Notes: generated by a model not told the origin, from the letters alone. Counted from the first letter of the stretch, positions 12,564-22,361 are shown. The stretch: DNA of 58,754 bases from an uncultured Candidatus Peribacteria bacterium (GCA_964436765.1 CAYTEH010000004.1:9910-68663); one strand, 5' to 3'. A program made the numbers and translations.

Positions 12564-15500
12564 TTATGATGCCAATGGATCTTCGCGCCTTGGTACAGGC
12601 AGGGCGGCCCACGTGATATACCGCGTCACCAAAGTGTCGGTGGTGGCAGTAAGGAATGCTGCCAAGGGGGTCCGTGCAATTGCAGGATCGGGCCCGGGAA
12701 TGTTGTACGTTGCATGGCTGCCGTCCGGGGCAGCAACGAATGTCGGATCACCGCCGGCATGAGCACGTAGTTCAGCTTGCCGCCGGGCCACTGCCTGCAC
12801 CTTCCACTGTTGCACGATATCGGCTTCCGGCAGATCCATGAACTGCTGAAATGTGAGGCCGGTCCAAGGATCGTTCTCGGTACTCGAGAGCGTGCCCGTG
12901 TTCATCACGATGCGCATGTTGCCGGAACCGCCTTCGTAGGTGACTCGGAACGTGGCGCCGGGGATGTTGAAGGCGTTCTGGACGGACGTGATTTTCTTTT
13001 CGGCCTCTTCCAGGCGCTTGACTGACGCTTCGGGGACCATGCGGTTGAAAATATCGTCTATGAATTGCCGGATGTTTTTGCGCTCGTTCTCGCTTACCTG
13101 CATTTCGAGCACCGGCACGGGCGTCACCGTGGCCGAAGGCGGGTCGACGTGGCGCGTCAGGTACGCACGCATGATCTCGTTGGAAAAGAGCTGCGCGAGC
13201 TGTCGGTCTAGCCCCTCGATGCCCGCAACGGTCGGGATGGTGCCTGCGTTCCCTAGCGCGGGCGGCAGACGACGGAAGCGCTGCATGATGCTGCTGATTT
13301 CTGCAGCCCTCTTCTGTATATCCTGCAGGTTGGAATGCGGCAGGCGGATGGTGCCCACGTCGGCCAGCGAGTTGATGGGCGGAGTGGTGATGACGCGTCC
13401 GGCTACAGTAGGCAGTGAATTGAGGATGGTGATAAGTGTCGTCCCCCACCAGTTCAGACGCGCCTCGGGCGTGGCCGTCTCCAGCAGACCGGCAGTCACT
13501 TCCTTGTTCAGGCGCTCGGAATTTTGGCTGTGCGCCGCAAGGCGCATGATCTGGTACTTGCGTTGTTCCAGTTCGTTTGCGACCTCCGTGACCGTTCTGT
13601 CGCCGCTGGCCGCGACGCGGTTCGCCCAGTCGCGCTGGAGGCTGCGCCTGGCTTCGTTCGTGAGGGGCATCTGGCCGAGGAACCTGTTCCAGCTCTGGTT
13701 CAGGTAGGCCACGTGCTCGTCGGCCTCCCGCACGCGCATGTTCGGGAAATTCGCGAAGTTCCCGCCGCCGTAGTAATCGGCAGCCGTGAAGGCCCTGAGA
13801 GGGTCGTTTTGATTGAGCAGGTTGAATTCCTGCGCGTTCTCGCTGGGGGGCGCAGCGAGGGGATTGTTGCGGTCGAGGATCTGCTGCATGTGACGACGGA
13901 TGCGCTGCACGAGGCTTGCCGCCTCGCGGCCGTTGCGGGACATATTCTCGAGTGTGCTGTCGTCAGCTTCGAAGAGGAATACCTCCCAAATTTTATAGTT
14001 GTACCCCTGGCTGGGATTTTCCCGCTCGAGACGATATGCCTCATGCATCGACACCAGATAGACGAACGTACGGCGTTCGTTGGGCGCTCTGCTTTCACCA
14101 AGCTCCCTGAGACGTCTCACCACATGAGGCTGGCCCCATTGCTGAAGAATAGAGCCGTCCACAGCCACACCGTAGGGCCTGATCTGTCCGGTGACGATGC
14201 GGCTGAAAAACTGCGGCGTGTCGTAGCGGTCACGAATATATGCGGCACCCTGCGCCTCGGCGCCGCCCCGGTGACCGGGGGCGCGGAAGCCCAGATTATC
14301 GATGCTGCGGCCACGATTCGTGAAAAACTTCTTGAGGAGCGCGTACATCGCCTGGCCCTTTTCCCTGGGGCCCATCTGGCCAAAGTCGAAGCCCGTGAAG
14401 TTCATGGTGGGCGGGAGCGGCGGCTGCTCACCGGGACGCGATCCGTTAATTTCCCAGGATTTCATGAGATCGTAGAATCGAATCACGTCATTGACCTTTT
14501 GGTCCTGGAGGATCGCGAGGAGCTTGCGGCTCATGAGGTCGTTGCTTTCCAGTTCCTGCGCCCAGTAGTTGGTGAGGGTCGCGGTGCTCTCGGGGCCGTT
14601 GCGCCAGTCCTGGATGCCCTTCGCGATGCCGTCCCACCAGGCCGAGCCGGTGCGGCGTTCCTGCACCAGGCCGTACACGAGGCCGCCAAACACGGCGGGA
14701 AGCAGAATGAAGTTTTCGAGGTTCGTGCGGTTTCGTTTGAAGAAGTAATGGTGGAGCCCTTTAATGGCCAGGAACGCGCCCAAGCCCACCGCGGCTGCGG
14801 CGGGGAGATTATTGCGCCAGTCCATGACGATGTCCTTCATCTCGCCCGCGAAGTTATGGATGGTCTGGCTCAGGCCGATCGACTTACGGAGCGATTCCGT
14901 CTGCGCCACAGTGCGGTTCTCGGTTTCCTCCGCGTTCACGAGGGCGTTGATGGTGATATCGAGGATCGAACGGGTGTCTTCCACACTCAGGCCGCTGACG
15001 GGACCGCCCGTCCAGTTGTTGCCGATGTACGTGCGCAGCGCGTTCAGGAAGCGTTGGTTGTCCGCGGTCTGCGGCATGTTTGCAGAGAGGAAATCGAGAG
15101 CAAGCTGCGGACGCGAGCGCCAGACGCTGGCAGACGGGAGGGAGTTCGTGAGTGCCTGCTCTGGGATGCCCGTCTGCATCACCTGGATGAACTGCGGCTG
15201 CCCCTGCATGCCGAAGCGCGGGTTCGGCTGCTGTTGCATCACCGGGACAGACCGCGGGCGACGGCGCATCTCGATATATCTGGTACGCGCGGTTCCGAGC
15301 GTGATGCCCCATCCACTGAGCGCTTCAGTGGAGCCCATTTCGTCGATGCTGATCACCTGGTACGCATCCTGCACCTTATTGACGATAGCTGCGTTGGCCG
15401 CGATGATCGCATCGAGCGCCTGGACCGTTTGCTGGGGATTGCCGGGCACGGCCGCGCCGGTGACTCTCGTGCGGAGGGTCCCGCCCTGGAGCATGATCGC

Positions 15501-20906: not shown

Positions 20907-22361
20907 TTATTTCACCGATTGCCCATGAAAAACCAGCTTGCCCGGGGCTTTGAAGTACCTGAAAGGATCTTTGAGAATCACTTTCTCGAATCCGCGGATT
21001 TCGCGGAAGACCGTCGGCTTGCCGCCGGCCTTATCTGTGATTTTCAGGTTCCCGCGTTCATCCCTGAAAATAATGCAATCAAGATCCGCTTCGCAGGCCG
21101 TCATATGGAGTTCGACCGCCCTGTTTGCAGGCAATGTCACGATGGTGTTCCTGATTTCATTCTCATCGTACGCATACAGGCCCTTGAAACGTTGCGTGGC
21201 GTCCCTCTTGGCATCGTCGGCCAATTCCTGTGCAAGTTCTCCTGCGGACACTCCGTTTGCGACCGACTGGACCGATACTTTCGCACGCATGACTTTCCGG
21301 GCGCCGTTGCCCCTGTAACCTTTCACAACTCCGTCAAACGTATCCTCACCCCTGTTCAAACCGGCCCCGACGGGCGCGATGCCCAGCGTGTCGGGCCCCT
21401 GAACCGTATGGGATGCTCCGGGCTTCAAACCCTCTTTCAACCACTTTGTCATGTTCTCAACATACTTCCCCTCGTCCGCCATGCCAGTGGGCATGGTGAC
21501 CGGCAGCACGCCGGTGAGGGTGTGGGGACTTGCGCTCAGGAAATACGGGTTGGGCCTCTCGCCGTCGCGTACCTGGGTCAGGAAACCGGCGATCAGGTTC
21601 GTCAGCTTCGCCTCATCACCTTGGGCATTCAGACGGCCCGCGATGTACTTCACCATCTTCGTAACGGCCTCGGTCCGCTGCACCTGGCCTTCGTCACCTC
21701 CGAGCGTAAGCACATCCAGAAGCAGCTGCTGCAGGTTCCTTTCGCTCAGGTCATTGATCACCCGTCCGGCATACTGCCTAAACTGTTCATCGGCATCATC
21801 CGGCACAGCCGGCTTTTGCGGTTCAATCTTTTTCGCCTTGGTCGTGATGTGCCCAAAACGGCCCAAAGCGACGCTGGTGGGCTCCAAATCGGGCGCGGGC
21901 GCTTCCTGTCCTTCCGAACGATAGCCGACAACGTCCAGCAGATCCTTCCTCAATTGTTCACTTGCCACGGAAGTCGGGATTCTTTCTGCAAGCTTATTGG
22001 CGTAGCCGAAATACAGATCCGACCTCGAGTGCATGCCTTTCTGTACTGCTGCGATAACCTGCTGCGACTCCGCAATTTTTGCATCACGGATCTCAGGCGA
22101 CGGTTCGCTTGTCATCTGGTCCTCTTTGAAAGCAATGCCGGCGGTAAGCATTTCATCGGAGAGGTCTTCCAAAATTTGCTCCATGCGGGCCCTCGTCTCT
22201 TCGATCACAACCGCAGCCTGACTGTTGCGGGCTTTCCGGAGTTCTAACATCAGACCATGCATCTCCTTGATCTCTGCCAGATTATCAATGATAGCATCAG
22301 CTCTCACCGTCAGATGCTTGTCGTGGAGTATCAGATCGGTGGAGTGCGTCTCGGTTTCCAT
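20907..22361 (-). CDS. Hypothetical protein A (484 aa), first gene of the four-gene ORFan operon
   Basis: Uninterrupted ORF directly downstream of a 187-bp AT-rich promoter region. No recognisable motif. Confidence 0.75.
   Translation of the reverse strand: METETHSTDLILHDKHLTVRADAIIDNLAEIKEMHGLMLELRKARNSQAAVVIEETRARMEQILEDLSDEMLTAGIAFKEDQMTSEPSPEIRDAKIAESQQVIAAVQKGMHSRSDLYFGYANKLAERIPTSVASEQLRKDLLDVVGYRSEGQEAPAPDLEPTSVALGRFGHITTKAKKIEPQKPAVPDDADEQFRQYAGRVINDLSERNLQQLLLDVLTLGGDEGQVQRTEAVTKMVKYIAGRLNAQGDEAKLTNLIAGFLTQVRDGERPNPYFLSASPHTLTGVLPVTMPTGMADEGKYVENMTKWLKEGLKPGASHTVQGPDTLGIAPVGAGLNRGEDTFDGVVKGYRGNGARKVMRAKVSVQSVANGVSAGELAQELADDAKRDATQRFKGLYAYDENEIRNTIVTLPANRAVELHMTACEADLDCIIFRDERGNLKITDKAGGKPTVFREIRGFEKVILKDPFRYFKAPGKLVFHGQSVK

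Follow-up and report, generated by a model that had tools for sequence, protein, structure and literature searches.

A 58,754-nucleotide stretch of DNA from an uncultured Candidatus Peribacteria bacterium (GCA_964436765.1 CAYTEH010000004.1:9910-68663), called the window here, carries on its minus strand four consecutive large genes, A (20907-22361, 484 aa), B (18824-20854, 676 aa), C (16248-18740, 830 aa) and D (12564-16223, 1219 aa). Judged by sequence comparison, A-D are real genes under selection that belong to a set of families restricted to a lineage; they are neither junk nor strict ORFans. The whole module is outside all known families by sequence, and C is so by structure as well. The genes are conserved and syntenic in related loci, they are under purifying selection and they have no known homologues; D begins with a distinctive N-terminal tag, B holds a short conserved module, the hydrophobic segments of C and D are marginal, and one internal region of D evolves fast. 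C and D are core components of a unit that is wider than four genes, beginning at the gene of a surface protein with LTD repeats and probably extending downstream to a tagged gene pair. In the reading preferred here, to which a probability of about 0.4 is given as a whole, the module is vertically inherited and specific to Candidatus Peribacteria (Peregrinibacteria, candidate phyla radiation, CPR), and its B-C-D core, coupled to the LTD surface protein, would form a lineage-specific, membrane-associated envelope or host-contact complex on the bacterium's own membrane.

Relatives and conserved order of the genes

Database searches placed none of the four proteins in a characterised family. No match near the curated cut-offs was obtained with Pfam-A 2025 or NCBIfam 20.0, and alignments of C (46 sequences), D (10) and A (6), together with 10 distant relatives of C, gave no consistent Pfam match. 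Against PDB sequences the best E was at least 0.13 (phmmer and profiles), nothing matched in PHROGs, no relatives of the module were found among the viral contigs of IMG/VR, and in PADLOC the sole match was that of B to LmuB, with none for A, C or D. An earlier note on this DNA, made from the sequence alone, had proposed such profile searches, had seen no recognisable motif in A-D and had suggested an undescribed multi-gene system. The zero Pfam and NCBIfam matches agree with its view of the motifs, and the lack of any profile, PDB-sequence or fold match for genes that are intact, syntenic and under purifying selection supports its suggestion of a new system.

When clustered at 90% identity, A-D are singletons, and word-seeded searches returned one or two relatives per protein. 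An exhaustive profile search with C recovered at least 57 representative clusters at 50% identity, 45 of them with E <= 1e-30. The members are mostly 800-1000 aa long, every one is unnamed or 'hypothetical', and they come from metagenome-assembled genomes (MAGs) of Candidatus Peribacteria and from metagenomes, with one distant member labelled Candidatus Uhrbacteria. The closer relatives, taken from species-representative genomes, are 'uncultured Candidatus Peribacteria' MAGs. For D, neither single sequences nor mixed profiles as queries brought up more than the window protein and one orthologue, and a scan of metagenome loci yielded two short loci. The proteins had been called ORFans, which stands in so far as no named family was found, but not in the strict sense, since 57 representative relatives were recovered for C, and syntenic ones exist for A, B and D. 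The ratio of nonsynonymous to synonymous substitutions (dN/dS) of D against its 65%-identity orthologue was about 0.22, equal to that of RNase Y, and the confident fold of C obtained from its family alignment indicates that C is a real, co-evolving protein.

Twelve independent related loci (L001, L002, L005, L008-L014, L016 and L017) were compared all-against-all; L003 belongs to the same organism as the window. The gene order, whose conservation in related MAGs the earlier note had proposed to check, is kept across these 12 further loci, which span 27-72% identity in C. The recurrent layout consists of RNase Y (divergent), the LTD-repeat surface protein, an optional A, then B, C and D, and small genes on the opposite strand. 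D lies directly after C in all 12 loci with sequence, often with overlapping stop and start codons, and in 10 of 11 loci the gene before C carries the B module. The LTD gene is upstream of the module in nine loci (those listed are L005, L008, L009, L011, L012, L014, L016 and L017). A was found by BLAST in four loci, i.e., the window and, at the same position, L010 (E 2.5e-26), L012 (1.8e-12) and L013 (3.4e-11), and in L011 and L014 its position is taken by a second family. Being absent from several loci, A is an accessory component.

In L017, a 25.5-kb MAG contig, the wider flanks are those of the window (HhH-GPD, RNase Y and carA), which places the module in the core chromosome. Other genes of the window around the module are those of EF-Tu, S10, RNase III, NusB, FolP and CarA. 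The L017 contig has a 94-aa AbrB-like gene between the LTD gene and B, and a nucleotidyltransferase/HepT-like toxin-antitoxin pair (17202-17853) between the module and carA. Matches to characterised families, or open reading frames (ORFs) disrupted or absent in relatives, had been named in the earlier note as findings that would speak against a new system; the opposite was observed. A split or frameshifted D in L002 and the missing A and B in L005 were dismissed as artefacts of scaffold N-gaps. The runs of N in these public MAGs (L002 ~8834-8843; L005 ~4610 and within 851-4545) break up the genes of D and of the LTD nuclease so that they look fragmented, mimicking pseudogenes or gene loss.

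Within the window, the description of four consecutive minus-strand ORFs of 484, 676, 830 and 1219 aa was exact in sizes and places, and the gaps of 52 nt (A-B), 83 nt (B-C) and 24 nt (C-D) were recovered. The AT-rich region of 187 bp upstream of gene A (22362-22548, minus strand, 5' of the gene), which had been regarded as a promoter region, has 30.5% G+C and contains a promoter-like site, the sigma-70-like candidate TTGACT-16-TAAAGT at 22418-22391, recognised by consensus match only. The G+C contents of 43-50% that had been given for B and C were too low, however. The measured values are 54.7% in B and 55.4% in C, with 55.6% in A, 62.0% in D and 57.4% in the whole window, and a mean G+C of 58.5% was reported for published Peribacteria genomes (PMC4736985). 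A foreign island of low G+C was ruled out, as genes of 55-62% G+C lie in a window of 57.4%. The statement that all other genes of similar size can be named did not hold either, as several further large ORFs of the window have no Pfam match. Of the neighbours described for the block, the surface nuclease, the G-rich protein (16.7% Gly) and the polytopic membrane protein were recovered.

C and D of the window share a reading frame, with one TAA stop and eight codons between them (16223-16250). UGA recoding or a C-D read-through fusion was considered and rejected. C stops at TAA, and housekeeping genes end in TGA; at other loci the two genes overlap in different frames, which makes such a fusion unlikely. 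Two long antisense ORFs on the plus strand, one of 770 aa inside D (13524-15836) and one of 442 aa inside A (20919-22247), are taken to be by-products of high G+C and not genes.

The N-terminal tag and features of the proteins

A tag of about 25 aa is present in all 12 D-position proteins. In the window it reads MIHMHFHTGRNTWSTREARLCGFS (16152-16223, minus strand), opening with a His-rich stretch, after which [ST]x[RK]E[A/R]RLC comes at residues 14-21. The pattern E[AKRTH][RH]L[CLI] occurs 17 times in the 43,406 residues of the locus proteins, and 16 of the 17 occurrences are these N-terminal sites. The codons of the tag vary freely at synonymous positions, which indicates selection on the peptide and rules out an RNA or DNA element. 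A Tat signal or lipobox was also rejected, because a polar sequence follows (CGFSPVAPSESIRGPN...) and the residues preceding the Cys are A-R-L. No hydrophobic stretch was found in the first 70 residues of D.

The tag recurs downstream of D in a 466-aa Gly-rich protein (9618-11018, minus strand), which has the RL[I/L] variant SAWSAREARLIAH (10959-11018). The start of this gene overlaps by 4 nt with the gene of a 114-aa protein (11015-11359, minus strand), for which no similarity to C was found. The 114-aa protein is conserved in L001 (85% identity) and L014 (E 9e-6), followed each time by a tagged protein. The tagged counterpart in L001 (L001_5704, 478 aa) is an orthologue of the 466-aa protein, and the counterparts L014_14690 (810 aa) and L016_7321 (734 aa) have unrelated bodies. 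The EARL(C/L/I) tag is a previously unknown N-terminal peptide that marks D and an unrelated downstream protein.

The D proteins form two BLAST groups, bridged by the D of L017 (E 3e-27 to the D of the window and 8e-4 to that of L014), and when the two groups were aligned with hhalign the N-terminal tag was the only aligned region. A short hairpin with a basic loop is common to all D proteins, distant ones included. In the window it comprises hydrophobic segments at aa 471-491 and 501-521 with the basic loop KGLHHYFFKRNRTN (14661-14813, minus strand), the two segments being split by a loop of about 10-17 aa. The central double hydrophobic hairpin of the earlier note is present, but its segments are marginally hydrophobic only. 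On the additive Hessa scale the D segments score +5 to +8 kcal/mol, with +5 to +6 for the hairpin, and the tails of C +1.6 to +5.6, compared with -5 to +1 for the transmembrane helices of the adjacent polytopic protein and +2.6 for the nuclease anchor. Peripheral, re-entrant or latent insertion therefore fits the D hairpin better than a classical Sec-inserted anchor. None of A-D shows an N-terminal hydrophobic signal segment, in line with the earlier view that they have no signal peptide. Compared with the 65% orthologue, D is 72-92% identical across most of residues 1-800, drops to 30-38% in the fast-evolving internal region at about 801-1050 (13074-13823, minus strand), a fall from about 80% to about 33%, and recovers at 1051-1150.

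The AlphaFold2 model of C, built from the 46-sequence family alignment, has a mean predicted local distance difference test score (pLDDT) of 80.5 and a predicted template-modelling score (pTM) of 0.71. Most of it is alpha-helical, and the helices at 293-396 are very long; a small domain at about residues 159-258 contains strands, and from residue 775 onwards the tail is disordered. A structural search with such a model had been proposed, and Foldseek returned no significant neighbour in the PDB (best E 0.018, template-modelling (TM) score <0.1) or in BFVD (best E 0.06). Near-invariant positions in C hold W, A, L, Y, P and R, and none holds a residue of catalytic type. A papain-like or transglutaminase-like cysteine hydrolase, considered for the motif 'ACWAVIRR' (ACWAV), was rejected: about 10 of 46 members have Ala in place of its Cys, there is no invariant His or Asp, and no fold matched. 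With this replaceable Cys, C looks like a scaffold rather than an enzyme.

The Trp-rich tail of C (16251-16529, minus strand), which is predicted to be disordered and has NPLxWP at aa 762-767 and 783-788, is present as previously described, and so is the KKDDHG-type end of B. In most C-family proteins a hydrophobic Gly-zipper tail comes after Trp motifs of the NPLxWP type; the C of the window keeps the Trp motifs only. Many members also have an internal Gly-rich hydrophobic insertion that is not found in the C of the window; an example is GGIGGAGILGGAALTGPFGWAALGAGTVLGIGTVALL at residues ~560-600 of P0012 (L002 4449-7028).

B consists of a variable charged body, a short conserved module of about 25 aa, and a disordered charged tail. 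Its heptad signal lies in segments 83-128, 290-372 and 414-508 and is comparable to that of the coiled coil of RNase Y, used as control. The coiled coil of several hundred residues that had been described is thus supported by the heptad signal, but it is segmented and not a single continuous coil. The conserved module at aa 548-604 (KPGLPQFTGIG...FFRIHGTAGLMGHMMRHVLGG; 19043-19213, minus strand) is the only part of B kept across loci and has the pattern ...FTGIG...F(F/L)R(V/I)H..GGLW..M.....GG. It occurs in the B-position genes of L002, L008, L010-L013, L014 (two genes), L016 and L017, and the whole B-position protein of L008 has only 81 aa. The low-complexity K/D/H-rich tail with KKDDHG-like repeats (18827-19042, minus strand) corresponds at other loci to tails rich in K/E/D/H or in P/T. 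The B of L012 carries the NPLxWP segment of the C of that locus (58% identity over 53 aa). An ATPase of the SMC/Rad50/LmuB type was rejected for B, since only the coiled-coil part matches and no P-loop domain was detected. The SMC model (TIGR02168) scored 13.3 bits against a cut-off of 567 bits, and the match to PADLOC LmuB (E 2.8e-5 over residues 229-494) is limited to the coiled-coil region. A has a helical N-terminal half and a conserved, alpha/beta-looking C-terminal half with the motifs NPY.L, G.LPE and DPFKYF.

The conserved neighbour upstream of A is the LTD nuclease (22549-25908, minus strand), with a signal peptide, four LTD repeats, PKD and SNase domains and a C-terminal anchor. The SNase domain was not detected in the LTD neighbours of L008, L009, L014 and L017, for which only LTD is listed. 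Downstream of D and convergent with it lies the gene of the polytopic membrane protein (11541-12503, plus strand), which has 4-5 strongly hydrophobic transmembrane helices. A homologue with 29% identity is found at the same position in L002, and at other loci unrelated small opposite-strand genes take its place.

Possible roles of the module and other features of the window

In the preferred reading, C would be a large helical scaffold and D a large helical protein, and both would touch the membrane with interfacial segments rich in Trp and with hairpins or tails that are rich in Gly/Ala and weakly hydrophobic, instead of classical transmembrane anchors. B would dock by its short conserved helix and project its disordered charged tail, A would serve as an accessory subunit, and the shared N-terminal ...EARL(C/L/I) tag could recruit or address D and a second tagged protein, encoded in the gene pair downstream. 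The assembly would most likely organise the cell envelope or a host-contact zone beneath or around the LTD surface protein, and would probably be put together on the bacterium's own membrane, from the cytoplasmic side. We infer the physical complex, its membrane binding and sidedness and the roles of A-D from sequence, as we do the joint action of B, C and D at the membrane and their functional connection to the LTD surface protein. The scaffold and the host-contact/effector module that the earlier note had suggested are the two leading hypotheses.

Several observations weigh against a complex of this kind. A is not present in L008, L009 and L016, nor B in L009, and extended -10-like sequences in the A-B and B-C gaps are possible internal promoters. 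The AlphaFold model of D, from a two-sequence alignment, reached a pLDDT of 32.9 and was not used for a fold search. The tag is set at a fixed distance from the Met on unrelated or fast-evolving bodies, and dN/dS is about 0.58 in residues 801-1050 of D vs 0.09-0.14 in the conserved parts. Cys makes up 0.18-0.35% of B, C and D compared with 1.23% in the housekeeping proteins of the window, which is a weak hint. Together with the marginal hydrophobicity of the C and D segments and the P/T-rich tails of some B proteins, the tag, the fast region of D and the Cys depletion fit an exported or host-directed role at least equally.

The tag on unrelated or rapidly diverging bodies, the fast region of D, the Cys depletion and the P/T-rich tails would also be expected of an exported membrane-inserting effector module, pore-forming or membrane-remodelling, with the tag as a Sec-independent export or targeting signal. 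Soluble helical C and D with latent hairpins would then insert into the host membrane and extract host resources alongside the LTD nuclease. Classical insertion would call for hairpins and tails more hydrophobic than these, and such weak hydrophobicity is seen in colicin-type and ClyA-type alpha-pore-formers and in membrane effectors translocated by type III and type IV secretion systems (T3SS and T4SS) as well. The D bodies have diverged past profile detection while C is still 27-40% identical, and the module is adjacent to the secreted, anchored LTD protein on the same strand. The requirement of CPR epibionts for a specialised secretion system to grow on hosts (PMC10633639) was counted on this side too. 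However, neither secretion machinery linked to the module nor a VirB4-like ATPase was found within the window, and A, B and C do not have the tag. Moreover, the matches of C to AhlB (E 0.92) and Hbl-B (E 1.1) are not significant, the 466-aa neighbour reaches 20.5 bits with MakB against a cut-off of 240 bits, and most of C and D is under strong purifying selection at a core-genome location. An effector module is the main rival of the preferred reading and is considered somewhat unlikely. It is more doubtful still that the tag is a new Sec-independent export or targeting signal of Peribacteria for D and the 466-aa and 734-810-aa proteins and that C-D is a new helical membrane-inserting machinery deployed at the host contact site with the LTD nuclease.

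The variable presence of A and B and the possible internal promoters could also mean that the genes are mere neighbours with separate functions, their order in the small genome reflecting chance or weak operon constraints. This is rather improbable given that C and D adjoin each other at all 12 loci, the stop codon of the one often overlapping the start codon of the other, that the NPLxWP tail motif is common to B and C, as in the 53-aa segment of L012 (58% identity), and that the order persists where D has diverged past BLAST detection. Even less can be said for a DNA-processing or nucleotide-scavenging apparatus, in which the LTD-SNase protein would degrade external DNA and B-C-D would capture or import the products. 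The LTD protein upstream in nine loci, the highly charged K/D/H tail of B and RNase Y next door would suit it, but SNase was not detected in several LTD neighbours (L008, L009, L014 and L017), so that nuclease activity is not the conserved partner, and L002 may keep the module without any LTD nuclease. In addition, D has at most a weak two-helix hairpin and is not channel-like, no ComEC, ComEA or transporter-like domains appeared in the Pfam and NCBIfam searches, and Peribacteria are able to synthesise nucleotides (PMC4736985). Least credible of all is that the module is what remains of a prophage or mobile element, of a defence island or of a polymorphic toxin locus. Large unannotated genes, a variable region in D and the weak match of B to LmuB (E 2.8e-5) might suggest this, but the G+C is typical of the genome, no PHROG match and no IMG/VR relatives were found, the position between RNase Y and carA is fixed in distant relatives, and purifying selection acts on the ORFs, which are all intact. 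In D the variable part is internal and a conserved segment comes after it; in contrast to toxin-immunity pairs, the genes downstream of D lie on the other strand. Mobile, defence and toxin-immunity origins are essentially excluded.

Bacteria of the CPR, among them the tiny and probably symbiotic Peribacteria, form a large share of bacterial diversity and are thought to live attached to other cells, and to our knowledge the proteins of their envelope and host interface are almost entirely unknown. The module takes up about 10 kb of a genome of about 1.2 Mb and is conserved across the sampled Peribacteria. With a confidently predicted fold of C for which no structural relative was detected and with a searchable tag, it offers a concrete target for the question of the CPR envelope and host interface. 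If the tag is a targeting signal, the co-addressed proteins could be listed from sequence alone, and localisation, secretion and host contact would become directly testable in an uncultivated lineage.

Other features were seen elsewhere in the window. At 49000-55100 the G+C is 48-53%. A tyrosine integrase gene lies there at 50122-51117 and that of a large serine recombinase at 53159-54784; by its sequence this stretch, which abuts tRNA-Ala and tRNA-Arg (54773-55047), looks like an integrated element. Two tandem T4SS_pilin (PF18895) genes lie at 38449-40250 on the plus strand among EF-Tu, S10, RNase III, NusB and FolP, and no other T4SS components were found near them in the window. Two pairs of large ORFs overlap. 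In one, an ABC transporter is encoded on the plus strand (31662-33428), which marks the minus-strand ORF of 542 aa (31656-33284) as spurious; in the other (28503-30371, plus, and 28590-30464, minus), the only matches are weak ones to Golvesin_C and PD40 on the plus strand.

Comparison with known systems

Two kinds of locus can be set aside. At the D locus no swap of the C-terminus with a same-strand immunity gene was found, as is seen in polymorphic toxin-immunity systems, and the module showed neither the hallmark genes nor the atypical composition and variable location of a prophage or mobile element. The LTD nucleases ExeM and NucH resemble the upstream neighbour, not A-D, in having LTD repeats, SNase, a signal peptide and an anchor. 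However, the neighbour matches ExeM with 15.8 bits against 1300, and several orthologous neighbours have LTD only.

The large all-helical proteins encoded by adjacent genes, with a weakly hydrophobic Gly/Ala-rich hairpin, recall the ClyA/Hbl/Nhe/Mak/Ahl toxins and colicin pore domains. Foldseek gave no ClyA/Hbl/Mak fold for C, however, the values being E 0.92 for AhlB (6grk_B) and 1.1 for Hbl-B (2nrj) with TM scores <0.15, and the MakB and MakE profiles match the 466-aa neighbour only, far below cut-off. Gly-zipper modules (SlyB/Pcp-like, with two transmembrane helices) share with most C proteins the hydrophobic tails rich in G-x3-G, and with some an internal Gly-zipper hairpin, but no Pfam match was found in the 46 members, the tail is lost from the C of the window and there is no lipobox.

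The tag is similar to the short conserved N-termini of LXG substrates of type VII secretion systems (T7SS) and of MIX-motif effectors of type VI secretion systems (T6SS), which precede variable bodies and often go with a tightly coupled upstream gene. It matches neither motif, no T6SS or T7SS genes are present, and the variable part of D is internal instead of a C-terminal cassette. D itself has the bilobed hydrophobic domain without a Sec signal by which Inc-like proteins are recognised (471-491 and 501-521). It may be compared with Inc-like and other T3SS/T4SS membrane effectors in its two adjacent, moderately hydrophobic segments in the middle of the protein, its conserved N-terminal region and its lack of a Sec signal. 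On the other hand, there is no sequence similarity, the window has no T3SS or linked T4SS, D is far larger, and the organism is a monoderm-like CPR bacterium.

The attachment-organelle proteins of Mycoplasma (HMW1/HMW2/HMW3, P65 and P200) differ from the module in lineage and envelope, with no homology and no EAGR-box or Pfam match. By analogy, though, the module may be likened to them in several respects: a reduced genome, clustered large coiled-coil or low-complexity proteins, aromatic and Gly-rich motifs, and proteins free of enzymatic signatures.

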